64,000 bases of DNA from positions 8,290 through 72,289 of the forward strand of contig JBGSUE010000040.1 of assembly GCA_041753515.1 (NCBI GenBank), read 5' to 3'. Position numbers and translations under genes: made by a program. The notes below the pieces were generated by a model. The model saw only the letters and a program-made list of their open reading frames with translations. It did no database searches and was not told where the DNA came from. The stretch is from Patescibacteria group bacterium (GTDB lineage Bacteria > Patescibacteriota > Microgenomatia > UBA10105 > UBA927). Shown one piece after another: positions 11,097 through 61,150 of this stretch. Within the stretch, counting starts at the first letter, position 1; each line of letters starts with the position of its first letter.

Positions 11097-11178
11097 GTCA
11101 TTCTGAGCCCCCGAGCACTAGAGGCGAAGAATCTCATCATGTCCAATAAATAGATTCTTCACTTCGTTCAGAATGACT
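11097..11178. repeat. inverted-repeat element E1 (type A: TGTCATTCTGAGC...GAAGAATCT / AGATTCTTCACTTCGTTCAGAATGAC)
   Basis: Near-perfect palindrome about 60 bp upstream of the GT2 start at 11037. Confidence 0.7.
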
Positions 11179-12592
11179 ATAATCGTTTCAACAATGTCTC
11201 ATCACCATCGACGGGTTCATAGCGTGCGTAAATATACTGCTGCCATGCCCATGGAAGCGTACTCACCCTTTTCAAACCACTCTGATAAATATACGGGACA
11301 CGATTTTCCTCAAGAATACGGGGCAAATCCGGCAAAGGACGGGAGAGATATCCGGCAAACTGCCCGAACGGGATACAGCAGGCATAATACGCGTCCGGGT
11401 TGTACAGAAATACACCTGTTAGATCCAAAATCTGCTCGTCTTTTGGTACGTCTCTGTAATATTCTTCCACCTGTTTGATAAAATCAGCATTGGTCCAGGC
11501 TTGTTTCGGAATTGTTACCTCATTAAAAACTGATACCAAAAACAACGCGAGAACGGCAAAAAGTGGTAAAAATATTATTTTTGGTATACGGATACTCAGA
11601 TACAAAACAAAATCGGCAGCATACCACGCGATAAACACACCTATCGGGATTAAATACTGGGCATGTTTGAGAGGTGCAAACTGGACAAAAAAGATGATTT
11701 GTGCCCACATCTGAAGGCTGATAAGTACTTCCGATTTCGATTTTGCCGATATCAGGCGATAGACGGAAAAGAGAAGGGCAAGTACCCATATGCTGTGATT
11801 GACAAGTAGCCCCCTGTTCCACCCGTCCACGCCATAATAGATACTGTTGGGATAAAAAAACAGGTCCTGCATCATGATAAACGTCTGACTTATTTTGTTG
11901 GCTTCAACCGGTAACTTGAACAGTGAATAAAATACCAATGGAAAATTTCCAAGCGTTAAAACCCAAATCCCAAATACTGCCATCGGAATCGTCATGCCCA
12001 TTATGAAAGGTTTCAGTTTCCTGCTCAATACTGCCATACCAAATCCTATGGCAATATTAGGCACCATTTTGGGCAAAACCAGATACGACAGAGCATACAA
12101 CGCCCCCGACACCATATGTTTCTTTTTTATCTGAAAATAGATAGCAGCCAATAAAAGAAGTGTTGCCAGGTTATCCGGCCGGATTTCCAGATACTTGTCA
12201 AACGGAAGAGGCAGAAATGCCAGAAGTGCGGCGGCAAGAACAGCTCCCCAGACACTTTTTCTCACCTCCCAAAAAATCATACCGGACATGACACACATCA
12301 TGGCAAATATCCAGAACGTCATGATCCGTGCCGTGATGAAAGGCTGGACTGTTCCCCATCCGGGCACGAGAGCAGAAATCAGGCTTACGGCATATCCGGG
12401 TGGAAAAAACGTGAGGAATTCGATATACGGTTTTTTTCCCTCCATCATTTTTGCAGCCCAGTGGAGGTGCGCAAACTCATCGGCATCAAAATAACGTGTC
12501 AAACCCAAACGGTAATGATACGAGAGAAAGTACAGAAAAAGAAATCCAGTAGCGACGAATAGTATTATCCGGTATATCTGTGTGGATTTCAT
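11177..12592 (-). CDS. GT-C-fold membrane glycosyltransferase, ArnT/PMT-like (start trimmed to MKSTQIYRIILFV)
   Basis: Polytopic protein. First-loop motif RYFDADEFAHLHWAAKM is the DxD/DE motif of GT-C. Paralog of 57056-58714 (RFFDSDEMSHMHWAW). Confidence 0.65.
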   Translation of the reverse strand: MKSTQIYRIILFVATGFLFLYFLSYHYRLGLTRYFDADEFAHLHWAAKMMEGKKPYIEFLTFFPPGYAVSLISALVPGWGTVQPFITARIMTFWIFAMMCVMSGMIFWEVRKSVWGAVLAAALLAFLPLPFDKYLEIRPDNLATLLLLAAIYFQIKKKHMVSGALYALSYLVLPKMVPNIAIGFGMAVLSRKLKPFIMGMTIPMAVFGIWVLTLGNFPLVFYSLFKLPVEANKISQTFIMMQDLFFYPNSIYYGVDGWNRGLLVNHSIWVLALLFSVYRLISAKSKSEVLISLQMWAQIIFFVQFAPLKHAQYLIPIGVFIAWYAADFVLYLSIRIPKIIFLPLFAVLALFLVSVFNEVTIPKQAWTNADFIKQVEEYYRDVPKDEQILDLTGVFLYNPDAYYACCIPFGQFAGYLSRPLPDLPRILEENRVPYIYQSGLKRVSTLPWAWQQYIYARYEPVDGDETLLKRL

Positions 12593-12611
12593 AGATAGAT
12601 GATACCGGAGT

Positions 12612-13064
12612 GTGCTATACTTTTCCAGCTTGTCCAAAGGTCGAACCGTCGACGCCCTTTTACATCCCCCAGAATGGAGAAAAAATGAAAACATCGAGTT
12701 GTTCGTACTGAGAATTGCAGAATGGGCACTCATCGCCCTGTCCGTAACCGGCACACTGCTGGGCGCAGCAACACTGTTCTCGCCCCAATCGGCGCCATGG
12801 GGTCCGATCACTGTCATCACCGGACTCATTCTGAATACGGTATTGGTGATTCATGCATGGCGCGCAAAGAGAGAACCTGTCCGGCAGTTTCATCCGTACC
12901 TATATCTGGTAGCCGTGATCCTCTTTTGCGTATTCGTCGGCTATTGGATTCTCACAGGGCTGATGGGTGAAGCGCTCTTCTCATACATGACGTTAGTATT
13001 GGCGATGGCGCTTCATGTCATCCGGCTGTCCACACCCCGGCTCAGAGCCCACTGGGCAAATTGA
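12612..13064 (+). CDS. small hydrophobic membrane protein, hypothetical
   Basis: 150 aa with 3-4 TM segments and coding-like composition. Overlaps only the doubtful N-extension of the GT-C ORF. Confidence 0.4.
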   Translation: MLYFSSLSKGRTVDALLHPPEWRKNENIELFVLRIAEWALIALSVTGTLLGAATLFSPQSAPWGPITVITGLILNTVLVIHAWRAKREPVRQFHPYLYLVAVILFCVFVGYWILTGLMGEALFSYMTLVLAMALHVIRLSTPRLRAHWAN

Positions 13065-13254
13065 TTAGAAATTGGTGTGATCTGCCCATGCGATGGTTTT
13101 TTCAACAGAAAAAATTGGGGAATAAAATCGTGTGGGTATTTTTCAGGTTTTTTAATAAATGCCTGAAATATTCCCACACGGATTCATCAAAATAAAATCC
13201 CTTCCGTTCAGGCAATAAGCTTGAGAAGAAGGGGTTTTATTTTTATTTCTCTCC

Positions 13255-13279
13255 TCCTCATACATCGATGTATTGGGAG
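13255..13279. promoter_or_regulatory. imperfect copy of the 24-bp palindrome TCCCAATACATCGATGTATTGGGA, upstream of the kinase-like gene pair
   Basis: tcctcatacatcgatgtattgggag. The partner copy lies at about 14941-14965. Confidence 0.5.
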
Positions 13280-13348
13280 TAAATTCAACTGAATGAAGAT
13301 TTAAAGTTTGTCTCCATACTCACAATTACATATAATAGTTTTCAACAT

Positions 13349-14242
13349 ATGCCTGAAATATCACCGCAAACACAACAACTTCTGAAGGAATACACCGGCG
13401 GCATACCCAGGGATTCAAAAATTATCTCCGATAACAGCGCCACAGGTATCATCTCGGTATTGGAATACACATCCGGTAAACTTGCCGTAAAAAAAGCAAA
13501 AGAGCCTGATTTGCCAACCCGGGATGAAAATAGAATACTTGTAAGACGGGAAGCAAAAAATCTCGACGCAATATCCACAACCAAATATGCAAAAAATGTT
13601 CCATACGTTGCCGATGTGAAAGACGATGAAAAAGGCGTGAGTATTGTTATGGAGTATCTGGATGGTTATAAGAATCTGGATGAACAGATCAACTCCTATC
13701 CCCCCCTTGAACAACTGCAGATACTTTCACAAGCCAAACAGATCCTGGATGGTATTCAGGCTGATGCCCACATCACTCACCTTGATTTTAGCTTCGGCAA
13801 TATTATGGTGAAGGGCCTCGGAAAAAACCTGAAATTAAAGATAATTGATTGGGCCCAGGCAGTACCCAATGGTAATAATAAGCAACTCATTCAATCAGAA
13901 CAGTATTTCCTGTCATCAATGAACAAAATTATTCGAGGTGAACCCATACTCAGCGAAAAAATCCGCACCCTCACCACAGACCTGGAGACTATGACCCCTG
14001 AATCAGCAAAAAAGGCTGTCAACAGCTTCCTTGATCAAGCCAGACAACGGTACGCAACATATGCAACTCATGAACAATCCCGAAAGTTCAATCTGGACGT
14101 GATTGACAGCATCAGTATTTACAACAAATTGACACCAAAAGACACAGTGCAGAAGATTCTGGAATCCATTGAGCAAAAAACTGGAGAATATACAACAATT
14201 CCTGTATTTTACGAAAAAGAGCCTATTCCTGGCTGGACATGA
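13349..14242 (+). CDS. atypical protein-kinase-fold protein, Kdo/WaaP (lipopolysaccharide kinase)-like
   Basis: LAVKKAK (beta3 Lys), RREAKNL (alphaC Glu), catalytic ITHLDFSFGNIMV, and IIDWAQA in place of DFG. Confidence 0.5.
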   Translation: MPEISPQTQQLLKEYTGGIPRDSKIISDNSATGIISVLEYTSGKLAVKKAKEPDLPTRDENRILVRREAKNLDAISTTKYAKNVPYVADVKDDEKGVSIVMEYLDGYKNLDEQINSYPPLEQLQILSQAKQILDGIQADAHITHLDFSFGNIMVKGLGKNLKLKIIDWAQAVPNGNNKQLIQSEQYFLSSMNKIIRGEPILSEKIRTLTTDLETMTPESAKKAVNSFLDQARQRYATYATHEQSRKFNLDVIDSISIYNKLTPKDTVQKILESIEQKTGEYTTIPVFYEKEPIPGWT

Positions 14243-14925
14243 TGAGTGCTTCTGATCGTTTAAAACTGCTGGACGATATGGCCGGTGCTATGCAGGATAT
14301 TCACGATAACGGATTCGGATTTGAAGATTTCGGCATGCACCGTTTTGTCATTGAAATACCAAAAAAAGAGCAGGGAACGGTACAGACACATCTTATCGAT
14401 TATTCCGGCGCTATCCATCATCCATCCGAAGAAATCCTTGCAGATTCCCAATCATACCTCCGCCACACAGCATTCCATATCCTGACTCGTTCGGCAAACC
14501 ACATTCCTCCGGAAACATTTCGGGAAGTGGCTTTGATATTCGATGAACAGATTCCGTACAGGGATGCACTGGCACGCATACGCAAAGCAATCCAAACTGA
14601 CCGTACTCATACATACTGGGAAAAAGACGATCCCGATCCCATACCGATATCCTTTCTAGACAAGGCATATAATCTGCAGGATTTACACAGAAATGGATTT
14701 ATCTATCCACACTACCTTCGCAAAGAGACTTTTGCAGGAGGTCCATACGCATATGACGATACACTCCCGTCGCCCAGCTTGGAATCAATTAAAGAAACGA
14801 ATCTTGAGGATTTAGGATATTTTACGATATCAGAAATCAAAAACAGCCCTGTTATTAACCCTAAACTCGCAGACTGGGCAGTACAGCACGTCTACGGTGA
14901 ATCACACACCTACTGGCCTGTTTAA
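14239..14925 (+). CDS. kinase-like protein, C-lobe only (Kdo/WaaP-like catalytic segment MHDNGFGFEDFGMHRFVI...LIDYSGA); possibly a degenerate paralog
   Basis: ATGA start/stop overlap with the upstream gene. Lacks the N-lobe. Confidence 0.4.
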   Translation: MMSASDRLKLLDDMAGAMQDIHDNGFGFEDFGMHRFVIEIPKKEQGTVQTHLIDYSGAIHHPSEEILADSQSYLRHTAFHILTRSANHIPPETFREVALIFDEQIPYRDALARIRKAIQTDRTHTYWEKDDPDPIPISFLDKAYNLQDLHRNGFIYPHYLRKETFAGGPYAYDDTLPSPSLESIKETNLEDLGYFTISEIKNSPVINPKLADWAVQHVYGESHTYWPV

Positions 14926-14940
14926 CACTCTTTCATCTAC

Positions 14941-14965
14941 TCCCAATACATCGATGTATAGGGAG
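14941..14965. promoter_or_regulatory. second copy of the 24-bp palindrome (tcccaatacatcgatgtataggga), downstream of the kinase-like pair
   Basis: Direct reading. With 13255-13279 it brackets the two-gene unit. Confidence 0.5.
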
Positions 14966-15001
14966 TTAATTATCCACTAATCTATAATCTGTACAGAATA
15001 C

Positions 15002-15030
15002 TTGACAAAATAATGTACGTTTTGTATACT
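15002..15030 (+). promoter_or_regulatory. sigma70-type promoter TTGACA-N17-TATACT, 8 nt upstream of the phd start (leaderless-type)
   Basis: TTGACA 15002-15007, spacer 17 nt, TATACT 15025-15030, ATG at 15039. The spacer holds gtacgttttgtatac, a possible operator. Confidence 0.6.
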
Positions 15031-15038
15031 CTATTCAT

Positions 15039-15311
15039 ATGCAGCTCCAACCATCCCAATTCATTCCGATAACCGAAGCAAGAACGAGAATTTCTGAACT
15101 TACAAAATCCGTTGAAGGAGACACGTATGTTGTACTGACAAAAGGTGGGAAACCCAAAGCTGCACTGGTTGATATTGCCTATTTACAACGTTTGCAGAAT
15201 GATCTCTCCAAACTCTATAAAAAAACTTATATCGACCCAGTACTTCTTCCGATTACCCGTCAATTTTCCGATAGTGAAATACAAGAGTGGGAAAAAGAGG
15301 ATCAGCTATAA
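15039..15311 (+). CDS. type II antitoxin, Phd/YefM family
   Basis: MQLQPSQFIPITEARTRISELTKSVEGDTYVVLTKGGKPKAALVDIAYLQRL is the Phd_YefM fold signature. Confidence 0.8.
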   Translation: MQLQPSQFIPITEARTRISELTKSVEGDTYVVLTKGGKPKAALVDIAYLQRLQNDLSKLYKKTYIDPVLLPITRQFSDSEIQEWEKEDQL

Positions 15312-16821: not shown

Positions 16822-16883
16822 TGTCATTCTGAACAAAGTGAAGAATCTATTCACTAGATCCTTCGCTCACGCTCAGGATGACA
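16822..16883. repeat. inverted-repeat element E2 (TGTCATTCTGAACAAAGTGAAGAATCT ... AGATCCTTCGCTCACGCTCAGGATGACA)
   Basis: 8 bp upstream of the aminotransferase start at 16814. Overlaps the 3' end of the GT2 pseudogene. Confidence 0.7.
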
Positions 16884-17586
16884 AACGGTACAGTATCATA
16901 TCAATAATCGTCGGAATGATGGTTCTAAGGCTTCCTCCCCCCGCCCCTTCCTCATCGGTCCGGGCTTTGTGGGCAATCGTTGTTTCCGCCACACGAAAAC
17001 CGGCACGGACCGCATCGATAATCATCTCCGCATCCACAAATGCGGAACGGGTTGAAAGATCAATCGAATCAATGACTTGTTTTTTTACGAGCCGGATGGA
17101 ATTGACGTCATGAATACTGATCCCGTAGAAGAATTTAAGAAGTGTATTGTAAATTTTCGACTGCCGCAAACGCGTTTCCGGATCCCTGCGGTTCACCCGC
17201 CAGCCGATAATCAAATCTGCATCACCTACAAGTTGTGCCAATGTTTGCAGTTCTTTGGGGTCCAGCTGTCCGTCACCGGGAACGGTAAACAGCCACTCAT
17301 ACCGTCAGGTTTTATAGAGTTCCTGTATGGTTCCCCCATACCCCTGATTCACCGTATGGGTTAAAACAGTAAGTTGTGGGTATTTCTTTAAAAGATTATT
17401 CAATACATCGCCCGTTCCGTCACGGCTTGCATCATTTATCACCATGATTTCGTATGTCCTGGTAATTTTTTTGGCAATAGTATCTGCTTTTAAAATTACT
17501 GATGCAACAGTCTCTTCATCATTGTATGCAGGTATGAGGATTGATACGGACGGAAAACGCATAGGATATTTTCCATATGATATCAT
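16873..17586 (-). pseudogene. DPM1-like GT2 with a single in-frame TGA at 17305-17307 (two track ORFs, 17305-17586 and 16873-17241, share one frame)
   Basis: Continuous translation is ...NQGYGGTIQELYKT[TGA]RYEWLFTVPGDGQLDPKELQTLAQLVGDADLIIGWR... The DxD-region alignment is uninterrupted, so one codon is replaced by a stop. Confidence 0.55.
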
Positions 17587-17619: not shown

Positions 17620-17704
17620 TGTCATTCTGATCCGCCAGTTGGCGGAGAAGAATCTAGTTTAAAAAATTAGATCCTTCACTCGCCTTCGGCGGTTCAGGAT
17701 GACA
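17620..17704. repeat. inverted-repeat element E3, 2 bp upstream of the ATG at 17707 and 34 bp upstream of the divergent start at 17586
   Basis: tgtcattctgatccgccagttggcggagaagaatct ... agatccttcactcgccttcggcggttcaggatgaca. Both inner arms are palindromic. Confidence 0.7.
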
Positions 17705-17706
17705 CA

Positions 17707-19263
17707 ATGAATGTAATTATGAGATTAACGAAAAATTTTATTCTTTTCTTTTTTATCGCCCAGATATACATATTCCTCTCCAATTATCATCTTCTGATTC
17801 TTGCGTCCCATACGCCGCAAGGCGCCAGATTTACGTGGAACCATATTGCCTACTGGTCCATGGACCACAATGTCTACCTGTCTGTCATCAATCAGGGAGC
17901 GCGCGGTGAGTGGCTCATGCGGGATGCGTACACCGCAGAGCCCACACATCCGACGTTTTTCTATTTCTTCTATATACTTCTCGGGAAAATAAGCGGTGCC
18001 CTCAACATCCTGCCTGATACCGCGTATCTGTGGGCTAAACTTATCGGCGTTGAATTTTTTGTCCTGTCTCTGTACTTTCTCAGTAAAAAAATACTGGGAA
18101 AGAATGGCATATGGGCTTCACTTCTTGCACTGTCCATAAGCGCCCTGCCGGTCCTCAACTGGGATACCCGCTACTACCATGAATTCTGGCCCTGGTGGGC
18201 CCGCTTTGATGCAATCCTGCGTCTGGACAACATGCCCCACTACCTCTGGAGCTGGGGACTATTATGCCTCTTTGCCGCCACCTGGTTTTCATATATGAAA
18301 GGAAAAAAAACTTATCTTCTTGTGCTATCTTCTATCTTCTCCCTTCTATCCTCTATGTTCCTCCCCTCGTCCGCCATCCCCATCATCGCGGGTCTGGGCG
18401 TCCTGTGGCTGCTATCCAAAAAACACCGCACCGGCACAGCTTTTTTTGTAGCAGCAATCGTCGCCATTCCGCTCCTATTAACCTACCGGGAAAAATTCAA
18501 CGGTTTTCCATGGACTGAGTGGTACCTATTTGAACTTGACACATGGAACCGCCAGGCAACCCATTTCAATATCGAATTTTTGCTTTCAGCCGGATTATTA
18601 CCAATCCTGGCATTGGTCGGCATACGGAAAAATAATCCTTCCTCCATTTTTCTGGCAGTGTGGGCTTTCCTACCCTTTTTTCTTCTCCCTTTCTCCTCAC
18701 TCCTGGGGCTCTCCAAATACCGCCTGGCATCAACCGGCGTCTTTATCCCATTCGCGCTTTTAAGCATTCAGGCTATTCAATATTTCAAAAAAACCGGTGT
18801 TTTGCTGATATGCATCTCTATTGCTTTTTCAATCATCACATCACTTTACATTTTCACCAATCTCAACCGCACCGCCCAAGAATACCCTGTTTACGCAAAC
18901 GTGTATATTCCAAAAGAAATGATGGATATTTTTTCATATCTCAATACGAATGCAGACGCCACCGATGTGATTGTGAGTGACTGGGTCAGCGGTAACCTAT
19001 TCCCTGTTTTTACACCCGTTACGGCATTCACAGGCCACCCTGTCCACACAAGAAACTTTTTCGATAAAACCGCATGGTATGGATCATTGTACCGGGGAGA
19101 ACTGACACAAAAAGACGCGGAAACAAAGCTTGGGGAATACCGGATTACATATATTCTTCACGGACCTGCGGAAAAGAGAATCGGTGTATCGCTGTCAGCA
19201 TATACGTTCCTGAAAAAAGTGTATGTGATGGGAGACTATAAATTATACAAAGTAGAATTATGA
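17707..19263 (+). CDS. polytopic membrane protein of an uncharacterised GT-C-like paralog family (member 1 of 7)
   Basis: N-terminal signature FTWNHIAYWSMDHNVYLSVINQGARGEWLMRDAYTAEP. C-terminal signature AYTFLKKVYVMGDYKLYKVEL. More than 10 TM segments. Confidence 0.55.
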   Translation: MNVIMRLTKNFILFFFIAQIYIFLSNYHLLILASHTPQGARFTWNHIAYWSMDHNVYLSVINQGARGEWLMRDAYTAEPTHPTFFYFFYILLGKISGALNILPDTAYLWAKLIGVEFFVLSLYFLSKKILGKNGIWASLLALSISALPVLNWDTRYYHEFWPWWARFDAILRLDNMPHYLWSWGLLCLFAATWFSYMKGKKTYLLVLSSIFSLLSSMFLPSSAIPIIAGLGVLWLLSKKHRTGTAFFVAAIVAIPLLLTYREKFNGFPWTEWYLFELDTWNRQATHFNIEFLLSAGLLPILALVGIRKNNPSSIFLAVWAFLPFFLLPFSSLLGLSKYRLASTGVFIPFALLSIQAIQYFKKTGVLLICISIAFSIITSLYIFTNLNRTAQEYPVYANVYIPKEMMDIFSYLNTNADATDVIVSDWVSGNLFPVFTPVTAFTGHPVHTRNFFDKTAWYGSLYRGELTQKDAETKLGEYRITYILHGPAEKRIGVSLSAYTFLKKVYVMGDYKLYKVEL

Positions 19264-19976
19264 AAACGACCGTCATTTTACCGGCACACAATGAAGAAGA
19301 GGTCATCGGCAAGATGGTTACTATGATCAATTCGCTTTTCGATACATGGGTATCCCAGTTAATTGTCGTTGACGATTGTTCAAGCGACAAAACAGCGCTC
19401 ATAGTGAAAAAACTGCAAAAAAAGGACAATCGCATAGTGCTCATCCAAAGAAATCCTCCAGGAGGTGTCGGGCTTGCACTGCGGGAAGGACTCAAACATG
19501 TAGCAAAATCGTCTGACTGGATACTGACGCTTGATGCGGATTTTACCCGCAATATTCCTGATCTTTATGAATTTTTTGCCAGTACGAAAGGTGTCGATGG
19601 ATTGATAGGATCACGATATATGATGCCAAACTCTCTTGTGAGATACCCGTTTTTCAAAAAAGTTTTCAACAGGCTGTTCCACCTTGCGGTCCGCATTATT
19701 TTCGGCGTCACAAATCATGACCTGACGAACAATTTCAAACTGTATAAAAAATCTATGTACCTGAAGCTCCCGCTGTCTGAAAACAGCTATGCCATAAATG
19801 CCGAAACCGGACTGTATCCCATTCTCATGGGATATAAAATAAAGGAACTTCCCGTCACCTGGTACGCGAGAACTCATGATGAAGGGATTTCAAAATTCAA
19901 GCTTCTGTCATTCGGTCCCGCGTACGGACGGGTCATCCTCAATGCATTCAGGCTTTTTCGACAACGACGAGGATAA
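19260..19976 (+). CDS. GT2 polyprenyl-phosphate sugar synthase (DPM1-like)
   Basis: VILPAHNEEE...VVDDCSSDKT...LDADF...GSRY. ATGA overlap with the upstream GT-C gene. Confidence 0.8.
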   Translation: MKTTVILPAHNEEEVIGKMVTMINSLFDTWVSQLIVVDDCSSDKTALIVKKLQKKDNRIVLIQRNPPGGVGLALREGLKHVAKSSDWILTLDADFTRNIPDLYEFFASTKGVDGLIGSRYMMPNSLVRYPFFKKVFNRLFHLAVRIIFGVTNHDLTNNFKLYKKSMYLKLPLSENSYAINAETGLYPILMGYKIKELPVTWYARTHDEGISKFKLLSFGPAYGRVILNAFRLFRQRRG

Positions 19977-21804: not shown

Positions 21805-21839
21805 AATTCATAATTCGTAATTCATAATTTGTAATTGAA
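21805..21839. repeat. (AATTCRT)n heptamer array: aattcat aattcgt aattcat aatttgt aattgaa
   Basis: Lies between the epimerase stop and the SGNH start at 21773. Confidence 0.7.
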
Positions 21840-30580: not shown

Positions 30581-30680
30581 ATGTCATCGCGAGCCAAGCT
30601 CAGCTTGGCGTGGCGATCTAAATCGGAATTCAAATCATCCCCACGGGATTGCTTCTCCGTGGGAACGGTATCGCAATGAC
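30581..30680. repeat. inverted-repeat element E8 (type B: TGTCATCGCGAG...GGCGTGGCGATC...GGGATTGCTTC...TCGCAATGACA)
   Basis: Contains the internal palindromes gccaagctcagcttggc and cccacggg...ccgtggg. Confidence 0.7.
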
Positions 30681-30781
30681 ATTTTTCTTTGAAAATTTCT
30701 GAATCTGTAGAGAATATATATTTCAGATGAATCATGATTCAATCAACTTGGTATTCATTATCGTAAAGTATAATGTAGTTC

Positions 30782-36288: not shown

Positions 36289-36326
36289 AAATTATGAATT
36301 ATTAATGATGAATTACGAATGAAGAT
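36289..36326. repeat. heptamer (AATTCRT-type) array directly upstream of the epimerase start at 36288, in reverse orientation on the plus strand
   Basis: ttcataaattatgaattattaatgatgaattacgaatgaag. Confidence 0.6.
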
Positions 36327-38904: not shown

Positions 38905-38921
38905 AATATTTTGTCATGCTG

Positions 38922-38973
38922 AGTGAAACGAAGCATCTCTTCACGAGATTCTTCACTACGTTCAGAATGACTC
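38922..38973. repeat. inverted-repeat element E4 (short variant), 18 bp upstream of the start at 38904
   Basis: tgtcatgctgagtgaaacgaagcatctcttcacgagattcttcactacgttcagaatgact. Confidence 0.6.
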
Positions 38974-39767: not shown

Positions 39768-39802
39768 AATTCGTAATTCCTAATTCATAATTCGTAATTC
39801 TT
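39768..39802. repeat. (AATTCRT)n heptamer array: aattcgt aattcct aattcat aattcgt aattctt
   Basis: Abuts the tktN start and overlaps the last codons (ELRIMN) and the stop of the epimerase. Confidence 0.7.
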
Positions 39803-47638: not shown

Positions 47639-47645
47639 TTACATA

Positions 47646-47731
47646 TGTGACATCGCGAGCCAAGCTCAGCTTGGCGTGGCGATCCCGTTTAAATTACGGG
47701 ATTGCTTCGTCGATGACTTCTCGCAATGACA
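47646..47731. repeat. inverted-repeat element E9 (type B), 8 bp upstream of the yfhO start
   Basis: gtgacatcgcgagccaagctcagcttggcgtggcgatcccgtttaaattacgggattgcttcgtcgatgacttctcgcaatgaca. Confidence 0.7.
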
Positions 47732-47744
47732 GTAAAAATCTTAT

Positions 47745-48605: not shown

Positions 48606-48610
48606 AATTT

Positions 48611-49885
48611 TTAAAGTATACCAGAAGCTATCCGCAATTTTCTTGCAAGCACGGCTACCCCATTGACTGAAGACAGAATCAGGAATGCATAAAACGGAAT
48701 AGTAATCCTGTATTCGGCATGGGTCAGGGAAAACGTAAGCGTGCCATAGAGTACTGTCCCGATAATGCTCATCCACACAAACCGTTGTATCTTATTTTTG
48801 GCCTTTACGGCTCCATTTACCATACCAATACCGGCAGTGAGTAAAAGCAGGATGTTGCCCGCGTATACGATACGGCGTGTTTGTTCAAAAAACGGTTCCT
48901 TATAAAAGAAAATATTCTCTTTCTGCCATACATACCACATCTTGAAAAACCGCCATCGGATATAATCCACGGGATCTTTTTTTATAAGATCCCACGCTTT
49001 GTTAAAATATTTCTCTGCCATAGCTTTTCGCTCTTGCGGTCCCCTCTCCGGATAATATTCACTGTAATATTCCCAAAACATCTGCATCGTTTCAACAGGA
49101 TAGATGTATGTAAAAGGAGGCAATACTTTCAGGATTACCCCGTTGTACATTTCCTTGGCATAAAAACTGTCTACCGTTGTGGCACTCACCTGCCCGTACG
49201 TTGTCCAGTTAACGTAAAGAGGATATATCATACTGACAATCATGCCCGCAAAAATTGCCGCGACCGTTGCTTTTTTCACTATCCATGAATGCGCCAGATA
49301 GACGGCGCATACAATGGGTATAATCGTCCAGGCAAATGCGGCATTGCGCGTTTCGGCAGCCATACCGGCCGAAAAACCGAAGAGAATACCGGTGAACACT
49401 GAGGGTTTCTGTATATACCACACTCCGGATACCAATGTGAGTGTAATGAAAAACGTGGTGAGCACTTCCGACAACCCTACCCCCACATAACCGCTGGTAA
49501 ACGGATTTACGGCATACAAAAACATACCCGCAAACGGCAAGATTGTTATTTTTCCAGAAGCTTTACGCAGAAGAATATACACAAAGACAGCAGTCATTGC
49601 ATCCATCAGAGCCTGCGCACGGAATAATGCATCGTGGTCTGCCCAAGCAGTCAGTTTATATACAAGAGTCATGAATAACGGGTACGGATACGAACGGTAT
49701 GTGTGGGCTGCCAACAGATTCGGGCTCCAGTACATTTTGATGGCATACCGCTCATATTCTTCCTGGTCCCATGCAAACGGTTGGGGCGCAAGAGTGATAA
49801 ACCACAAGCGGAATGCGATGGCAAAGACGAATACGAAACATACAAAAAAAACTTCCTTCATTGATTTATAATATTGTTCATTCAT
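48611..49885 (-). CDS. ArnT/PMT_2-like GT-C membrane glycosyltransferase
   Basis: LAPQPFAWDQEEYERYA...LFMTLVYKL...NPFTSGYVGVGLSE. C-terminus KMWYVWQKENIFFY is shared with 54275-55522. Confidence 0.65.
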   Translation of the reverse strand: MNEQYYKSMKEVFFVCFVFVFAIAFRLWFITLAPQPFAWDQEEYERYAIKMYWSPNLLAAHTYRSYPYPLFMTLVYKLTAWADHDALFRAQALMDAMTAVFVYILLRKASGKITILPFAGMFLYAVNPFTSGYVGVGLSEVLTTFFITLTLVSGVWYIQKPSVFTGILFGFSAGMAAETRNAAFAWTIIPIVCAVYLAHSWIVKKATVAAIFAGMIVSMIYPLYVNWTTYGQVSATTVDSFYAKEMYNGVILKVLPPFTYIYPVETMQMFWEYYSEYYPERGPQERKAMAEKYFNKAWDLIKKDPVDYIRWRFFKMWYVWQKENIFFYKEPFFEQTRRIVYAGNILLLLTAGIGMVNGAVKAKNKIQRFVWMSIIGTVLYGTLTFSLTHAEYRITIPFYAFLILSSVNGVAVLARKLRIASGIL

Positions 49886-49901
49886 AAATGTATTTATTTA
49901 T

Positions 49902-49977
49902 TGTCATTCTGAACGAAGTGAAGAATCTCGTAGTAGATTAGATCCTTCATCCGCCTGTTGGCGGATTCAGGATGACA
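49902..49977. repeat. inverted-repeat element E5, 17 bp upstream of the start at 49885
   Basis: tgtcattctgaacgaagtgaagaatctcgtagtagattagatccttcatccgcctgttggcggattcaggatgaca. Confidence 0.7.
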
Positions 49978-49978
49978 T

Positions 49979-51724
49979 TCATCGATACTCATAAATGAAT
50001 ACGTTTCCGTTTTCGTAAAGTTTCGTCAGAAACGGATAAAATTCATCCAAATTTTTCCCTCCGGCATCTTCGCGCTCCTGCGGCCCGAAAAATATGTAGT
50101 GCAGTCCGGTTTCTGACAAAAACTGCCGGGCATCGTCAGGCGGCATCGTCCCGCTGAAAAATGCTTTCACATACATCTTTTTCTCCTGGCTTCCCACCGT
50201 GTTGTCATGCCCCACATACACGGTATTACCGGAGTAGACGGGGATATAATTGCCGGCAGTTGTCTGAGACAAAATGGCGGTATCCCTGCTTGTGTTGTCC
50301 TGAAGCCAGACAATGGCATCGATAAAATCGTTTAAGGGATACATCACGTAACTGCCTGTGGGTACCAACGGATACGCGGCAACTATTTTATGAACCACGA
50401 AGTCCCTTTGCCAGAGCCATGACGAATACATGTGCATGAGATTAAGCACCAATAAACCTAATGGAATCACGTAGATCAGATCAGGAAATGTATATAAGAG
50501 TTTTGATTTCTTTTTATCAAAACCTTTATTTTTAATATATTTTTCAATGGAATACCTGAGAGAAAGATACAGTTGATAAAAAAGATAGACACTCAATATT
50601 CCTAATGGAATGTGGACAATCATTTCGGAAAACCGCAACGGACTCTGTTGGGGAATAAACTGAAAGATAAACAGGAGCGCTGCCCATGCTAATACCCAAG
50701 CAACGGGCAATATCATGAGCTTGTCACGTTTTTTCAATGCAATGACTGCTCCAAGAACCCCAAGCGGCAGCATGATGCCGACTGCCTGCAGATATTCGTA
50801 ATACTGAAACGGCAGTGGCCGGAGAACATCGGCAAGTGCAAGCTCCTTCCAGGGGTAAAATGTCACCATCAACTGTAAATACGCCATCGACGGCAAGGCG
50901 ATAATCGACAAAAAAAGCCTGCCGAATACATGTCTGCCAAACCATACCCGGAAGTTTTTTTTCACCGGCCGATCAAACCAGAATTCAAGTACTGTCATGA
51001 CGGCAAATCCTGCGTACACAAATACAAGCCCCGGCGGGAAAATAAATCCGAGAACAAATGACAGTATCCCTAAAAATATCCAATTGCGCGGTTTTGCTAT
51101 GGTGGCAAGATCGGATCCGGCAAAAAGAACAAATGCCAACAGAATCTGTCCGACGAGCAGGTGCGGAATGAAAGTAATCCGCTGCAGGGAATCCATCACA
51201 CTCCACCATGCCATGTATCCTCCGATGCGCAAGGATCCGTCATCCATGGTTACGAGTTTCGGATATGTACTCGCTGTGACGGCAAACAAAAATCCAAGAA
51301 TGGAAAGTCCGTATTTTGTGAAAGATCGTTTAGCAATTTCTGCAGTGACTATCAAGAGTACAAATCCGAGAACAGTCCGGGTTGCGTGATATATATCACT
51401 TGTCCGGTGCCAATTGATATGCACCCACTTCCCGATCCATCCGAGAACCAGATAAAATACGTGTACAAAAGAGCCCTGATGCGGTTCGCTCGTATACTTT
51501 TCGTGAACTGTAAGGTGTCCTTCCAATCCCTGTCTAATACGCGAGAGATAGAAATTAAAATCCGTATAGAAATTATGCACCAGCTCGAATCGCCGCTCAG
51601 GCCGTATGGTATCCGCTTTACCAATCTCAAAAAACATCGGCCAGAGGGAAAAGATGACAAAAAACAGGGAAAGGAGTACAAATGTGTAAGGTTTTAACAA
51701 CGCGAGCAATTTATTCATAGTCAT
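49979..51724 (-). CDS. GT-C-like paralog family member 4
   Basis: RRFELVHNFYTDFNFYLSRIRQGLEGHLTVHEKYTSEP. C-terminus FYPFLTKLYENGNVFIYEYR. Confidence 0.55.
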   Translation of the reverse strand: MTMNKLLALLKPYTFVLLSLFFVIFSLWPMFFEIGKADTIRPERRFELVHNFYTDFNFYLSRIRQGLEGHLTVHEKYTSEPHQGSFVHVFYLVLGWIGKWVHINWHRTSDIYHATRTVLGFVLLIVTAEIAKRSFTKYGLSILGFLFAVTASTYPKLVTMDDGSLRIGGYMAWWSVMDSLQRITFIPHLLVGQILLAFVLFAGSDLATIAKPRNWIFLGILSFVLGFIFPPGLVFVYAGFAVMTVLEFWFDRPVKKNFRVWFGRHVFGRLFLSIIALPSMAYLQLMVTFYPWKELALADVLRPLPFQYYEYLQAVGIMLPLGVLGAVIALKKRDKLMILPVAWVLAWAALLFIFQFIPQQSPLRFSEMIVHIPLGILSVYLFYQLYLSLRYSIEKYIKNKGFDKKKSKLLYTFPDLIYVIPLGLLVLNLMHMYSSWLWQRDFVVHKIVAAYPLVPTGSYVMYPLNDFIDAIVWLQDNTSRDTAILSQTTAGNYIPVYSGNTVYVGHDNTVGSQEKKMYVKAFFSGTMPPDDARQFLSETGLHYIFFGPQEREDAGGKNLDEFYPFLTKLYENGNVFIYEYR

Positions 51725-51740
51725 GAATTACCCATTCCAT

Positions 51741-51821
51741 TGTCATTCTGAGCATTCTGATGCGAAGAATCTAGTTTAATCATAATTACTAGATCCTTCG
51801 GCCTTTAGCCTCAGGATGACA
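51741..51821. repeat. inverted-repeat element E6, 17 bp upstream of the start at 51724
   Basis: tgtcattctgagcattctgatgcgaagaatctagtttaatcataattactagatccttcggcctttagcctcaggatgaca. Confidence 0.7.
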
Positions 51822-51859
51822 TAAGACTGCGTGAGTACTGCATAGTATGACGTGCAATC

Positions 51860-53422
51860 TTATTGGATACTTACTTTATATATCACGACATCATTGTTTT
51901 GGTAAACAGGTAAATAAAACGGATTTTTCAAAAATCCGTCCGTTTCTTGGTACCCCTTGTAGACAAACCGGATATTGTTGTCGTTCAGGAATTTTTCCGT
52001 CGACGCCTGGTCCCACGCACCGTCAAAAAAATTGTTTTTGTTTGCCTCCATGGCAAGACCTGTCTCATACGGCCAGCCCTGCTTGTTGCCATACACATAA
52101 TTATGGGAATATAAAAGAATATTATTGGCAGCTTCGTACGATGCAATCACCGTGCTTTCCACAGGAGTATTTTTATCCAGCCACCCGTATGCGTCCATCA
52201 TGCCGGTTGAGGGAAATTTGAATAATGAATACGACATATAATCCGTATTGGCGATTAATCCTGTTTTGAAATCATGATAGAAAGCCGGGAGCAGGAGGAG
52301 TATTACGGTTAAAATAATAATTTTGTTACGCAACAGATATACTGCCCCGTACGCCATGGGAATAAAGTAGAGGGACTGGATAAACCGCACGCGCTCCGCC
52401 CGAAAATATTTATACAGAAAAAAGAAAAACAGGAGCTGCAAGATAAGCCACACGGCCATATACACGGTTTTTTCATCACGGAGTTTTGTACGCAGCAATG
52501 ATACTGCAATACCGATTGATCCGATCCAAAACACCGGTCCGAAGGCAATAAGATCCCCCGCAATCGTCTGCCAGCCGATAGTCTGGCCGGAGACGTACTC
52601 TTCAAACGACAGGACCCAGTTTGTGGGATACTGATGGGTATAGTGGTAGGAAATAGCCATTCCTACCGCCAATCCGCTCACCGTTGATACATACGTCGTT
52701 GCTGCTGTTTTTTTCGTAACAATTCTATACAGAATCATCACGCCGGATAGTGAACACAAAAGGAGTGAAAATGCCGGATGCATCGTTCCCATTACCGTTC
52801 CCATGACGAATGATGCCCCGACTATCCATTTTTTCCTGTGATATTTGTTATTCAGATTGATAAGAGTTAAAAAAAGAAAGAGTAATGCGCCAAAAAGGTA
52901 GTGCGGACGGCTGGCAAACCTGAGGGCTACGTTGTCGATAAACCCGAACTGTGTCAAAACTCTGTATCCGCCCTGCGCGTAATATCCAAACGAAGTAGAC
53001 AGGGCAGCAAGCATTCCTGCTTGAAGTGCAAATGTTTTTCTGCCACCAACAACCAACAGAAGCCTGATCATGAAAACGAAAAAAAGTATCCCTCCTGAAA
53101 TTCGTATAAGATGATACCCGACCGGAGCCGATACTCCCAAAAAACCGGTCAGCTTCCCGCCCCAGACATAGAGCAGATGGACGGTTGAAAACGACTGAGG
53201 CGGCGGGACAGAACGGATACGGAAATAATTGGCGCCATACATCCCTTCTTTTACATAGGAGACATATCCCACATAGTCATCCACAAACCCTTCCATCCAG
53301 GTATATCCGCGGCCTTCCGGTTTAGTGAAATACGGCACCACCGTCCCCGCCATCCCCAATGAAACAAAAAGGATTGAAAGAATAACAGTAATTACCGCAA
53401 ACTTCCCTGATGATTTGTTCAT
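51860..53422 (-). CDS. GT-C-like paralog family member 5 (start trimmed to MNKSSGKFAVITVILS)
   Basis: PEGRGYTWMEGFVDDYVGYVSYVKEGMYGANYFRIRSVPPPQSF. C-terminus NPFYLPVYQNNDVVIYKVSIQ. Confidence 0.55.
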   Translation of the reverse strand: MNKSSGKFAVITVILSILFVSLGMAGTVVPYFTKPEGRGYTWMEGFVDDYVGYVSYVKEGMYGANYFRIRSVPPPQSFSTVHLLYVWGGKLTGFLGVSAPVGYHLIRISGGILFFVFMIRLLLVVGGRKTFALQAGMLAALSTSFGYYAQGGYRVLTQFGFIDNVALRFASRPHYLFGALLFLFLTLINLNNKYHRKKWIVGASFVMGTVMGTMHPAFSLLLCSLSGVMILYRIVTKKTAATTYVSTVSGLAVGMAISYHYTHQYPTNWVLSFEEYVSGQTIGWQTIAGDLIAFGPVFWIGSIGIAVSLLRTKLRDEKTVYMAVWLILQLLFFFFLYKYFRAERVRFIQSLYFIPMAYGAVYLLRNKIIILTVILLLLPAFYHDFKTGLIANTDYMSYSLFKFPSTGMMDAYGWLDKNTPVESTVIASYEAANNILLYSHNYVYGNKQGWPYETGLAMEANKNNFFDGAWDQASTEKFLNDNNIRFVYKGYQETDGFLKNPFYLPVYQNNDVVIYKVSIQ

Positions 53423-53455
53423 GGTGGAGAATGTATTAGTTAACATGCAAATTAT

Positions 53456-53550
53456 GTCATCGCGAGTCCGTTCTGACGGCGTGGCGATCCCGACGGGATT
53501 CCTGCCTGCCGGCAGGCAGGACTTCGTCTCTACGTTCCTCGCAATGACAC
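53456..53550. repeat. inverted-repeat element E10 (type B) containing the second copy of the perfect 20-bp palindrome CCTGCCTGCCGGCAGGCAGG (about 53502-53521)
   Basis: tgtcatcgcgagtccgttctgacggcgtggcgatcccgacgggattcctgcctgccggcaggcaggacttcgtctctacgttcctcgcaatgaca. Confidence 0.7.
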
Positions 53551-53600
53551 TTTTAAACAAATTTCATCTTTGTTATACCTGTTATTATATAATAGATGCC

Positions 53601-57025: not shown

Positions 57026-57055
57026 CCCCCATAGTGTACTATTGTCCTGTATCAT

Positions 57056-58714: not shown

Positions 58715-58716
58715 TC

Positions 58717-58745
58717 TTGACACAAAATCGCCATCCTGATAGTCT
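58717..58745 (+). promoter_or_regulatory. promoter TTGACA-N17-TAGTCT, 7 nt upstream of the ATG at 58753 (leaderless-type)
   Basis: Direct reading of 58717-58752. Confidence 0.45.
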
Positions 58746-58752
58746 GTAGTCC

Positions 58753-59493: not shown

Positions 59494-59514
59494 AAACGTG
59501 GTATAGTTGTTCAC

Positions 59515-61014
59515 ATGCAGGCGTTATTGTGGATCGTCATTGTTTTACTGACATCACTCTATGCATTAGGCAAATACCTCGTCGGTGTATCCCATACCCC
59601 TCCGGGATCTGTGTTTTTGGGTACAGTCCACTACCCCACGGATTATTTTATTTATCTGTCCGAGTATGCCTGGGGGCGGCACAGCTGGTTTTTCAATAGG
59701 GTTTTGCAGTCAACCGAGGCGCCTGGTGACAATCTCATCCGGTGGGTCAACGTATTCTGTGGTCATATATTCTCTCTCTTCGGCCTCAATCAGATCACAG
59801 CTTACCAAATCTCCGTTGTTCTTTTTACGGTAAGTATCATATATCTCTCATATACACTTCTTGTTAAAATATTGAAATCACGTCATGAGGCATTATACGG
59901 ATTATTCGTCTATCTGACAGCCAACGCATTCCCGGGCTGGGACGGATCAAATCTTTCCACATTCGATTTCTGGTACAACCAGGGAAATCCCCTCAACCGT
60001 CTCATCAACGTCCCCCATCATCTGTTGGGGCAAATTGCGCTCCTTGCTCTCGTTTACATCTGGATATCAAAAAAGAAAAATCTTCTTTCATTTGTGGTTG
60101 CCATCATCTGCGGCATGATTCTGGCAGGCGTGAACGGTGTGCATCTCCTGTTCGCAGCCGGCATCATGAGTGTGTCCCGTTTATCACTCCCTGTACTTTT
60201 TTCACTCATCGGCGCAGCCCCGATACTTTTATCTGTCAGGCACACATTAAGCATTCCCCCTCTCTCCAATATGATCATTTGGGAAACAAACAACCAAATG
60301 ATTCTGACCCCATGGCGGCTGTTTCTGGGATACGGCCCGATATTATTGTCCTTATTGCCTGCAACAATCATGTACTTGAAAAAACCTGACAGATTCAGAA
60401 TTTTTTCCCTTCTGTTCACATGGATCAGTCTTCTATTGTTTCTTTCCCCTATTCCAAAACTTCTTCATTTGGGAAACGTCCGGTTTCTCATACCCTTCAC
60501 TCATATACTTCTCAGCATCATGGTTATTGACATACTACGCAGAATAAAAATTCAGACAATAAAAACAATTATTGTTTCTGTATATATCGGGGTATCTGCA
60601 CTATCTTTGTATGCAACAGGGACAAAAATATATGCGCTCTACCAAAACCCCGCAAATCCCTTTTATTATCTGCCGAAACCAGTCTATTCTCTCTTTGCCT
60701 ATTCTGGAAATATATCCAAACCGGATGATGTATTTCTTTTAGGATGGCCGTACAACGCGATATTCCCTGGCATCTCCGGGTCACAATCATATTTTTCCGA
60801 AGTCCTCCTGGTAAAAGATCCGGTTGAAACCGGAAAATTGGCGGAAATATTTTTTTCAGACGAGTCACCGATCCCAGAGCGGATACAGTTTCTCAATCAA
60901 TTCGGTATCACCTACATCATTCATCGGGAAGAAACACTCTCCCCATCGTCTGGTCTTCCCATCCAACAAATCAGATCAGAAGGCGGATTTACATTATGGA
61001 AAGTCGTGAAGTGA
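59515..61014 (+). CDS. GT-C-like paralog family member 7
   Basis: PPGSVFLGTVHYPTDYFIYLSEYAWGRHSWFFNRVLQSTEAPGDN. C-terminus IRSEGGFTLWKVVK. Confidence 0.55.
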   Translation: MQALLWIVIVLLTSLYALGKYLVGVSHTPPGSVFLGTVHYPTDYFIYLSEYAWGRHSWFFNRVLQSTEAPGDNLIRWVNVFCGHIFSLFGLNQITAYQISVVLFTVSIIYLSYTLLVKILKSRHEALYGLFVYLTANAFPGWDGSNLSTFDFWYNQGNPLNRLINVPHHLLGQIALLALVYIWISKKKNLLSFVVAIICGMILAGVNGVHLLFAAGIMSVSRLSLPVLFSLIGAAPILLSVRHTLSIPPLSNMIIWETNNQMILTPWRLFLGYGPILLSLLPATIMYLKKPDRFRIFSLLFTWISLLLFLSPIPKLLHLGNVRFLIPFTHILLSIMVIDILRRIKIQTIKTIIVSVYIGVSALSLYATGTKIYALYQNPANPFYYLPKPVYSLFAYSGNISKPDDVFLLGWPYNAIFPGISGSQSYFSEVLLVKDPVETGKLAEIFFSDESPIPERIQFLNQFGITYIIHREETLSPSSGLPIQQIRSEGGFTLWKVVK

Positions 61015-61064
61015 TATAATCCTTTTACTCTGCCTACTCTTGCTCTTTTCCATCCCGCACAGAT

Positions 61065-61150
61065 TGTCATCCTGAGCGAGAGTGAAGGATCTCGTTTTTG
61101 GGGAGAAAGAGGGTTTCCCAACCCAACCCGTGAGCGACCGTCCACTCCCC
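61065..61150. repeat. half-copy of the type A element (tgtcatcctgagcgagagtgaaggatct) fused to a second hairpin (tttttggggag...ctccccaaaaa)
   Basis: Direct reading. Lies upstream of the ATG at 61182. Confidence 0.55.

Follow-up and report, generated by a model that had tools for sequence, protein, structure and literature searches.

Ten palindromic elements in the window

The window analysed here is a 64-kb stretch of DNA from a Patescibacteria group bacterium (assembly GCA_041753515.1, contig JBGSUE010000040.1, positions 8,290 to 72,289). Its genes include those of polysaccharide and glycan biosynthesis (GT2, GT-C/PMT-like and YfhO-like transferases, DegT aminotransferases and epimerases), a split transketolase, methyltransferases and a sulfotransferase, and the closest homologues of the encoded proteins are 58-74% identical. 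We examined ten short palindromic elements, E1 to E10, all of them located within 11000-61200 and, there, within the ~6% that is non-coding (Table 1). These elements represent the shorter of two classes in one family, and the longer class encodes a stand-alone GIY-YIG nuclease.

A sequence-only reading of the window had described at least ten copies in two subtypes. Pattern searches, a covariance model and reading of the sequence confirm ten at the places given, with six type-A doublets and one solo type-A arm (E1-E7) and three type-B doublets (E8-E10). The proposed size of 80-100 bp was too narrow, the elements being real but measuring 61-100 bp. A 27-nt pattern of the type-A arm matches four times in the window, with none expected from 100 shuffles, and a pattern of the type-B ends matches six times, where 0.26 matches are expected. 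The covariance model of the arm, run on the whole window with filters off, returned exactly 13 type-A arms at 35-45 bits and a next-best match at 11.9 bits; this gap indicates that the type-A count is complete and that no copies are hidden. The doublets fold far better than shuffled sequence (DNA z = -2.5 to -7.0), with RNA minimum free energies of -20 to -50 kcal/mol, and the stem triplets co-vary. The doubt that the repeats might be an assembly artefact is answered by E2, which is base-for-base identical in a contig from an independent assembly of the same strain (L121, Logan SRR28170473). Another contig of a same-strain independent assembly (L123) ends right at E9, and such a break is the expected assembly behaviour of a genuine dispersed repeat.

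Structure of the arm

The arm has the layout (T/C)GTC-AT-NNN-GA-(variable hairpin)-GA-N'N'N'-AT-C, in which the triplet NNN always co-varies within the arm. It consists of an unpaired 4-nt tag, a 5-bp stem that begins with A-T followed by T-A, a purine internal loop and a second helix, free in both sequence and length. Two arms stand head to head, tags outward, in nine of the ten elements, and the doublet reads TGTC-X-GA-(hairpin)-GA-X'-CT(AG)...spacer...(CT)AG-X-TC-(hairpin)-TC-X'-GACA. X is ATTCT, ATCCT or ATGCT in type A; type-B arms start with ATCGC (paired with GCGAT) or ATTGC (paired with GCAAT), and the internal loop is GA/GA in type A and GA/GTG in type B. The tag is TGTC in 16 of the 19 window arms, the exceptions being AGTC (two arms) and TGAC (one), and both CGTC and TGTC tags are present in related loci. 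The stem pairs X/X' are perfect inside every window arm, whereas pairing between the two arms contains a wobble or a mismatch in eight of the nine doublets, which are heterodimers; it follows that the unit is the single arm. In related loci, arm pairs in the order plus then minus, 4-43 nt apart, dominate, and arms of type A, type B and further triplet variants co-occur in single contigs.

The covariation is corroborated by the related sequences. Nine different triplets were found, all with their complement within the arm, and the stem position that the search pattern left free (Y/R) is complementary in 177 of the matches listed and not complementary in five. Among the unique arms of the matches listed, 217 are perfect, eight have a G-T pair, eight an A-C mismatch and five another mismatch; since G-T pairs are no commoner than A-C mismatches, there is no sign of selection acting on RNA only. 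In an alignment of 49 arms, 99.1% of the cells pair, three pairs co-vary, and columns 5/39 and 6/38 are A-U and U-A in all 49.

Unrelated inner helices (GCGAAGC, GCCCGCGCTTTCGCGGGC and GATCAGC..GCTGATC are examples) are always bracketed by CTGA..GAAG. The inner segments are 5 to 33 nt long, with a second helix of 2-9 bp and a loop of 3-7 nt or longer, and the same motif is sometimes nested inside, in agreement with the nested internal hairpins noted earlier. The commonest inner unit is GCGNAGC. It is known that d(GCGAAGC) forms an unusually stable DNA mini-hairpin and that sheared tandem G-A pairs are favoured by 5'-Py-GA-Pu-3' steps. With these properties, the GCGNAGC unit and the G-A steps would suit an arm that folds as single-stranded DNA. 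In E10, some of the right arm is replaced by a perfect palindrome, apparently another hairpin element nested there by insertion. For E7, no partner arm was found; an unrelated 60-nt hairpin stands directly after this solo arm, with a T-run on its 5' side and an A-run on its 3' side, and is therefore not a canonical terminator on either strand.

Table 1. Coordinates of the ten elements and of other features; positions are those of the window, except for the Y1 genes, which are given in their own loci.
Feature	Position	Description	Arms, sequence and scores	Nearest downstream start (nt)	Neighbouring gene ends
E1	11096..11178	type-A doublet	arms 11096-11134 (+) and 11152-11178 (-), both TCT triplet; left arm with 19-nt inner hairpin; 39.2 and 41.5 bits	58	right end overlapped by stop codon of upstream gene 11177-12829(-); downstream start 11037
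E2	16822..16883	type-A heterodimer	arms 16822-16848 (+, TCT) and 16856-16883 (-, CCT); 44.0 and 43.5 bits	7	right arm contains stop TGA (16873-16875) of upstream GT2 gene; left end faces start of DegT gene
E3	17620..17704	type-A heterodimer	arms 17620-17655 (+) and 17669-17704 (-), both with long inner hairpins; folding z = -6.97	2	divergent gap; 2 nt from ATG 17707, 33 nt from ATG 17586
E4	38912..38972	type-A heterodimer	GCT and TCT arms	7	between two transketolase subunit genes; 7 nt to start of C-terminal subunit gene, 21 nt to stop of N-terminal subunit gene
E5	49902..49977	type-A heterodimer	TCT and CCT arms; left arm TGTCATTCTGAACGAAGTGAAGAATCT; 45.5 bits	16	
E6	51741..51821	type-A heterodimer	TCT and CCT arms; central spacer CTAG-TTTAATCATAATTAC-TAG	16	stop codon 38 nt away
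E7	61065..61092 (+)	solo type-A left arm	CCT; 39.5 bits	~89	
E8	30582..30681	type-B heterodimer	arms ATCGC..GCGAT and ATTGC..GCAAT	100	7 nt past stop of gene 29363-30574
E9	47648..47731	type-B heterodimer	left tag TGAC in place of TGTC	9	start of YfhO-like gene
E10	53455..53549	type-B heterodimer	right arm interrupted by nested palindrome	8	divergent gap; ATG 53446(-)
Palindrome inside E10	53500-53521	perfect 22-nt palindrome	TCCTGCCTGCCGGCAGGCAGGA		
Hairpin after E7	61093-61155	unrelated 60-nt hairpin	TTTTTGGGGAG...CTCCCCAAAAA		
AATTCRT array	9556-9587	tandem heptamers			
AATTCRT array	10259-10283	tandem heptamers			
AATTCRT array	21805-21836	tandem heptamers			
AATTCRT array	36290-36320	tandem heptamers, opposite orientation			
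AATTCRT array	39767-39800	tandem heptamers			
26-nt palindrome, copy 1	13250-13285	different palindrome	CTCC(C/T)AATACATCGATGTAT(A/T)GGGAG		
26-nt palindrome, copy 2	14936-14971	different palindrome	as copy 1		
Y1 gene	L134 6903-7553	RAYT-like			
Y1 gene	L131 3575-4240	RAYT-like			
Y1 gene	L072 1170-1817	RAYT-like			
Y1 gene	L177 1800-2362	RAYT-like			

A GIY-YIG gene enclosed by arms

Clustering of the open reading frames (ORFs) that lie beside arms in related loci surfaced a small GIY-YIG protein. In the loci collected, the spacers of outward arm pairs measure 0-49 nt in 128 cases, 50-125 nt in eight and 300-425 nt in nine, so that short pairs far outnumber long ones, and eight of the nine long spacers contain a full GIY-YIG ORF of ~96 aa (E = 1e-34 to 1e-53). 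In the clearest cases the gene's stop codon is part of the right-arm tail or adjoins it. The gene of L208 and of L150 sits exactly between an outward arm pair, in the order left arm, 4-25 nt, ATG and ~96 codons, and its stop is the TAG of the CTAGAT tail of the right arm. Arm pair and enclosed gene together span ~360-470 bp. An arm identical to the left arm of E5 is present just upstream of the GIY-YIG gene in a Ca. Shapirobacteria locus (L332).

The partner protein matches PF01541 (E about 1e-17 to 1e-13), its invariant residues are Y9, Y19, G21, R29, E32, H33 and E66, and its closest solved structures are the UPF0213 proteins 1ZG2 and 1YWL. By domain, residues and length it is classified here as a predicted UPF0213/YhbQ-type GIY-YIG nuclease, a stand-alone protein of ~96 aa that consists of the GIY-YIG domain only and has no DNA-binding domain. 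YhbQ and YazA are included in the Slx1 family of structure-selective nucleases (PMC7017083). Homologues of the partner are annotated in the databases as 'excinuclease ABC C subunit domain protein' or 'putative endonuclease'. Many of the close homologues occur on contigs as short as 500-1,000 bp or recur on numerous contigs (up to 28), which is what multi-copy, assembly-breaking units would look like.

The association also holds when loci are selected by the protein. In IMG/VR, outward YGTCAY tags within 160 nt were found on both sides of the gene in 18 of 35 non-redundant close relatives, against 1 of 68 shifted control windows (p = 1.3e-9). Strict tagged hairpins occur at 2.0 per kb beside the gene and at 0.16 per kb elsewhere in the same loci, a 12.6-fold difference, and only one of 22 distant GIY-YIG relatives has such hairpins. 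The stems of the IMG/VR loci are lineage-specific and include CGTC-1-like, CGTC-3-like and GTCAC variants. Among the records of NCBI, ENA, JGI and Logan, all five proteins looked up are flanked by arms, with Patescibacteria, Omnitrophota and Nitrospinae among them. The arrangement varies: the gene is inside one outward arm pair in L332, L338 and L340, in L334/L337 it has a full doublet on its upstream side and a right arm on its downstream side, and the flanking arms of L328 are less regularly arranged. On plasmid p1 of Planktothrix agardhii the gene (protein WP_083616022.1) is flanked by TCT/CCT doublets of the window type. In Azospirillum lipoferum 4B, whose species is on the 2013 list of CGTC carriers, a CGTC-1 doublet stands on either side of the gene (protein WP_014249537.1), which is inserted between sufB and sufC.

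Several features of the surroundings of these genes were recorded. The GIY-YIG unit lies between histidine-kinase and response-regulator genes in L334/L337 (Omnitrophota) and L338/L339 (Nitrospinae), and a second GIY-YIG gene closely follows the regulator gene in the Omnitrophota locus. The P. agardhii gene (L325, NZ_LR882964.1, ~18530-19450) is located between a gene for an MmeI-type restriction enzyme and the DISARM gene drmA. The doublets that flank it are adjoined by terminus-starting pieces of 17-23 nt in two or three tandem repeats, for example TGTCATTCTGAGTATTCTTCCTT and ...CATTCAGGATGACAATTTTTATCTGT; these pieces may be footprints of repeated cutting or insertion.

Gain and loss of arms, and their distribution

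Arm copies are gained or lost at orthologous phage sites. The comparison was made on related tailed-phage contigs with portal and major-head genes, whose flanks are ~85% identical. The spacer between the portal gene and the next gene is empty in L034 (GAGTAAT/AACTCAAAAGGAG, the slash marking the point in question), and L049 has a 29-nt solo type-B arm at exactly this point, with no duplication. L007 and L068 carry type-A arms at other points of the orthologous spacer, and type-A arms are nested inside a type-B doublet in L047. No target-site duplication was found at the ten window copies or at the L034/L049 pair, which agrees with the earlier view of a REP-like or MITE-like palindromic family without such duplications (REP, repetitive extragenic palindromic; MITE, miniature inverted-repeat transposable element).

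A search of IMG/VR with the arm pattern yielded at least 120 loci (GC 33-70%), and a search of JGI metagenomes with the doublet pattern likewise yielded at least 120 (GC 31-68%). The carriers include cyanobacteria, Bacteroidota, bacteria of the candidate phyla radiation (CPR) and uncultivated phages, with a contig GC of 31-70% overall; plasmid records name Phocaeicola massiliensis, Hymenobacter, Calothrix, Planktothrix, Oscillatoria and Gloeothece. The cultured phages of INPHARED gave essentially no match (a single hit), and a lineage-specific 34-mer of E8/E9 had no match in metagenomes. Arms are strongly depleted from ORFs in the viral loci, with 29% inside against 79% expected from a crude ORF map, and the only proteins recurring beside them there are products of phage structural genes.

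Comparison with known systems

The general class to which these repeats belong has been known since 2013, and the composite-stem variant described here, with its two subtypes, represents at least new members. REPs with a CGTC tag were defined by Di Nocera, De Gregorio and Rocco (2013, BMC Genomics 14:522; PMC3733652). According to the available text of that paper, the tag of this superfamily is often TGTC, with CCTC as a further variant, the stems begin "almost invariably" with AT, tails are of 3 nt, head-to-head dimers predominate and are often heterodimers, and the repeats lie mainly between co-directional ORFs; the superfamily occurs in five phyla, including Bacteroidetes, and comprises Neisseria dRS3 and Rickettsia RPE-4 and RPE-6. 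The same text states that these repeats "apparently lack a dedicated transposase" and reports no REP-associated tyrosine transposase (RAYT) flanked by them in the species examined. As far as this text goes, the window arms agree in the tag, the AT-first stem, the short tail, the head-to-head heterodimers, the stop codons supplied by element ends, the lack of a flanking transposase and the co-directional context. They differ from its continuous stems of 8-9 bp with loops of 4-5 nt, since a 5-bp stem, a 2x2 or 2x3 purine loop and a second helix correspond to none of its four CGTC geometries; the tail consensus is CCA there and CT(A/C) or CCC here. That text reports no enzyme, whereas a GIY-YIG gene is found here enclosed by the repeats, including arms of CGTC-1 and CGTC-3 type. 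The Sulfurovum CGTC-2 peptide RHSELVSGS can be back-translated, with chosen codons, to CGTCATTCTGAGCTTGTCTCAGGATC, which shares its 5' half and loop with the present arms and has a Watson-Crick 3' half. Read with these codons, the arms of the present family resemble an expandable relative of CGTC-2 that has G-A mismatches.

The REPs mobilised with RAYTs, called REPINs (hairpin-forming doublets of REPs) or REPtrons (Nunvar 2010; Bertels and Rainey 2011; Ton-Hoang 2012), share with the present family the tagged hairpin, the inverted doublets, the intergenic location and the coexistence of many non-coding copies with a small number of loci in which the same repeats flank a protein-coding gene. 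Here the tag is (C/T)GTC and there GT[AG]G, the protein is a ~96-aa GIY-YIG nuclease instead of a Y1/HUH transposase, and many GIY-YIG loci have the gene within one doublet, the stop codon being part of the arm. MITEs that derive from insertion sequences have in common with our family two size classes with shared termini, of which the long one is coding and the short one non-coding and commoner. Unlike them, the present elements showed no target-site duplication and have termini that fold on themselves as hairpins; the protein encoded does not belong to the DDE, serine or tyrosine transposases, and the coding unit is only ~0.4 kb. The partner shares its catalytic domain with GIY-YIG homing genes (T4 seg genes, I-TevI relatives) and with Slx1/YhbQ/YazA; it differs from the homing genes in the lack of a DNA-binding domain and of an intron or phage-gene context.

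A further likeness concerns the small dispersed repeats of Nostoc described by Elhai et al in 2008, which are reported to be hairpin-forming sequences of 21-27 nt with compensatory changes and nested self-insertions, and to be associated with heptamer tandem repeats in these cyanobacteria. We know of no enzyme assigned to them.

In the literature covered, which leaves most subscription journals outside, we found no paper that links GIY-YIG, UPF0213 or YhbQ proteins to REPs or CGTC repeats. The term 'GIY-YIG' is absent from every REP and RAYT paper that a combined search for these terms listed, no assigned function for bacterial UPF0213 proteins was met in the literature found, and the sequence strings of the elements led to no relevant paper there. 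A 2026 genome-language-model preprint that mentions Bacteroides and REPs concerns other elements.

Position relative to genes

Seven copies lie between co-directional genes and two (E3, E10) in divergent gaps; E7 is probably also between co-directional genes, in a place where gene calls conflict. The sequence-only reading had nine of ten copies ending 2-60 bp from a start codon. The distance is 2-58 nt in eight of the ten (2-16 nt in seven of them), and nine is reached only if the hairpin adjoining E7 is counted. That this placement is a specific property is not upheld, since upstream stops are equally near: a stop overlaps E1, another is inside an arm of E2, and elsewhere the distances are 1, 7, 13, 21 and 38 nt. 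Without the element, the gaps are ordinary operon spacers of 17-107 nt, and the proximity to start codons arises because the copies live in tight spacers; it is not a targeting rule. A start codon supplied by the terminal ATG of E10 was considered and rejected, the HAD gene most likely starting at 53601 (MLKLIIFDWDD).

Rfam 15 gave no match at gathering scores anywhere in the window, and a more permissive scan (E <= 10) of 47600-53600, which covers E5, E6, E9 and E10, was likewise negative. The CUGA..GAAG bracket resembles the core of a hammerhead ribozyme but lacks CUGAUGA and GAAA, and this candidate was discarded. No Shine-Dalgarno sequence was found upstream of the start codons of the window and no HIP1 octamer within it; as regards attC sites and CRISPR, the window has no arrays, regular spacing, integrase or cas genes. 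The warning that such elements can be mistranslated into small proteins was justified, RSFAHAQDDKR and VILSESEG being the translated arms of E2 and E7.

A proposed origin of the elements and its alternatives

We propose, with a probability that we would put at about 60%, that the ten elements are ORF-less, non-autonomous members of a mobile palindromic (C/T)GTC-tagged REP family, whose parent is the GIY-YIG unit. A window copy would correspond to the unit of arm pair and gene from which the ORF has been deleted, as a MITE relates to its parent element. The nuclease would recognise the extruded hairpin or cruciform and cut at or near the tag, and this cut would enable copying of the full unit, and of its short derivatives, into intergenic spacers that are short and AT-rich, with no duplication of the target site. 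On this view the nuclease mobilises both size classes. A nuclease acting on hairpins would fit the lack of a DNA-binding domain, the place of YhbQ and YazA in the Slx1 family and the three small COG2827 genes of Caulobacter, a CGTC-positive species (PMC1839093). One of these Caulobacter genes is SOS-regulated. The window copies would be co-transcribed passengers, on which effects on mRNA stability or translation would be secondary.

Several considerations weigh against this proposal. The window contains no GIY-YIG ORF, so that the partner is, in this organism, a prediction made from other organisms. A 96-aa catalytic domain without a DNA-binding domain is not a known type of transposase, and a GIY-YIG cut has no established route to insertion at new sites. 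A lone arm is only marginally stable by nearest-neighbour DNA energies (-1.7 kcal/mol, z = 0.1), which may not credit GNA loops or sheared G-A pairs. The 79 IMG/VR loci, picked by the protein alone, were freed of near-duplicates by eye, and about half of the IMG/VR loci have no clear pair under the criteria used, some of them having variant tags. Finally, the association fits either direction, the nuclease mobilising the repeats or the gene invading existing ones.

At a broader level, we tentatively suggest, at somewhat less than even odds, that the whole (C/T)GTC REP superfamily is the non-coding progeny or substrate of minimal GIY-YIG-encoding mobile units. Such a scheme would take in the alpha-proteobacterial CGTC-1 and CGTC-3 repeats and, by published membership, dRS3 and RPE, and the GIY-YIG enzyme would then play the part for CGTC REPs that RAYT plays for GTAG REPs. 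In bacterial genomes, REPs rank among the commonest non-coding elements, and an enzyme is known for the GTAG class only. For the CGTC class, a GIY-YIG nuclease of UPF0213 represents a concrete candidate, its gene being enclosed by the repeat arms, and the link holds in metagenome loci selected by their arms, in protein-selected loci of two other collections and in several phyla. If the proposal is true, it would add a new enzyme class to prokaryotic mobile DNA, with coding units of ~0.4 kb that are among the smallest mobile ones, and give the orphan UPF0213 family a function. It would also explain many spurious small ORFs and assembly breaks in metagenomes and account for the repeats from CPR bacteria to cyanobacteria and uncultivated phages. 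The practical message for the window itself is modest: its copies are best seen as passengers of polysaccharide-biosynthesis operons, not to be labelled as genes, terminators or riboswitches.

The main rival reverses the causality: a free-standing GIY-YIG gene of the selfish, homing type would target REP doublets already in place, insert into them or beside them and use their arms as homology, the repeats being spread by another activity or no longer mobile. Free-standing GIY-YIG homing genes are an established class, as exemplified by the T4 seg genes. The association with arms is equally well explained in this direction, and in several loci (Azospirillum, Planktothrix, L250 and L144 are examples) the gene has complete doublets beside it and is not inside one. 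We nevertheless consider this unlikely, because the ORF is integrated with its arms: in the clearest loci (L208, L150, L332, L340 and L279) the TAG in the tail of the right arm serves as the stop codon, and 4-50 nt separate the end of the left arm from the ATG. In addition, the central spacers of the empty window doublets vary in sequence and length, which leaves no conserved homing site, and the protein lacks the DNA-binding domain that gives homing enzymes their long targets.

It could also be argued that the elements exist chiefly as RNA structures of the host, serving as protection from 3' exonucleases, in translational coupling or uncoupling, or as processing sites. E. coli REPs affect mRNA decay and translation (summarised in PMC6006769). 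The co-directional position of seven of the ten copies, which are therefore transcribed (E4 between the transketolase subunits is one), the stable hairpins of the doublets and the 2-16 nt that separate one end from a start codon in seven copies would be in keeping with such a role. It is difficult to reconcile with the presence and absence of arms at orthologous spacers of close relatives, or with their nesting. Nor are G-U pairs enriched over A-C (8 versus 8), and the two strands can pair equally well, which speaks against selection on RNA only. The same arms are also found in divergent gaps (E3, E10) and in all orientations, the Rfam scans gave no match, and carriers at 31-70% GC in many phyla share no fixed gene partner. 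We therefore regard this as improbable as the principal explanation; a host RNA function may coexist with either a mobilising or an invading nuclease, but it leaves the pattern of gain and loss unexplained.

Classical REPINs, with a RAYT (Y1/HUH) transposase that is encoded in another part of the genome and mobilises them, would account for a 4-nt tag placed 5' of a hairpin and for inverted doublets, both of which mirror the GTAG REPs, and Y1 genes do occur in some carrier contigs. The sequence-only reading had suggested a TnpB, IS200-like or Y1 partner. No transposase gene was found in the 64-kb window, and no classical transposase flanked by arms in 1.9 Mb of related, arm-containing loci. 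The four Y1 genes detected in the latter, with the RAYT sequences of the 2013 supplement as queries (Table 1), each have flanking palindromes of their own kind, different from the arms (for example CGTCTAACCGCGGCGGTTAGACG and CCCGACTCCCGGAGTCGGGGG); their loci also carry TGTC-tagged arms, which indicates that two repeat systems coexist in the same genomes. The tag, moreover, is (C/T)GTC and not GT[AG]G, the REPs of Bacteroidetes RAYT subclass 2.6 (GCTAGCGCGAGCG...) are unlike the window arms, and the available text of Di Nocera et al (PMC3733652) reports no RAYT flanked by CGTC repeats in its species. A RAYT origin is thus very improbable. Intrinsic terminators, once suggested for these elements, and chance or assembly artefacts can hardly be credited, as a T-tract in the direction of transcription follows E8 only (TTTTTCTTT) and is absent at the nine other copies, copies lie inside operons, the chance expectation is 0 and the same arms are found in an independent assembly and three public collections.

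Other repeats and features of the window

The window also contains five tandem arrays of the heptamer AATTCRT, of 3.6-4.9 copies each, in intergenic spacers, four of them just upstream of minus-strand gene starts and one in a divergent gap. They are a second, unrelated dispersed repeat in the same operons and recall the heptamer repeats of cyanobacteria. Two copies of a different, 26-nt palindrome bracket a two-gene block (13349-14925) that includes a RIO-kinase-like gene, with a Phd/YefM antitoxin gene at 15039-15311. The GT2 glycosyltransferase gene between E2 and E3 is apparently split into ORFs 17305-17586 and 16873-17241 and may be a frameshifted pseudogene. The first 4 kb of the window (1-4000) are low in GC, 35% against ~44% elsewhere, and three adjacent genes at 3775-5372 have a prepilin N-terminal methylation motif.

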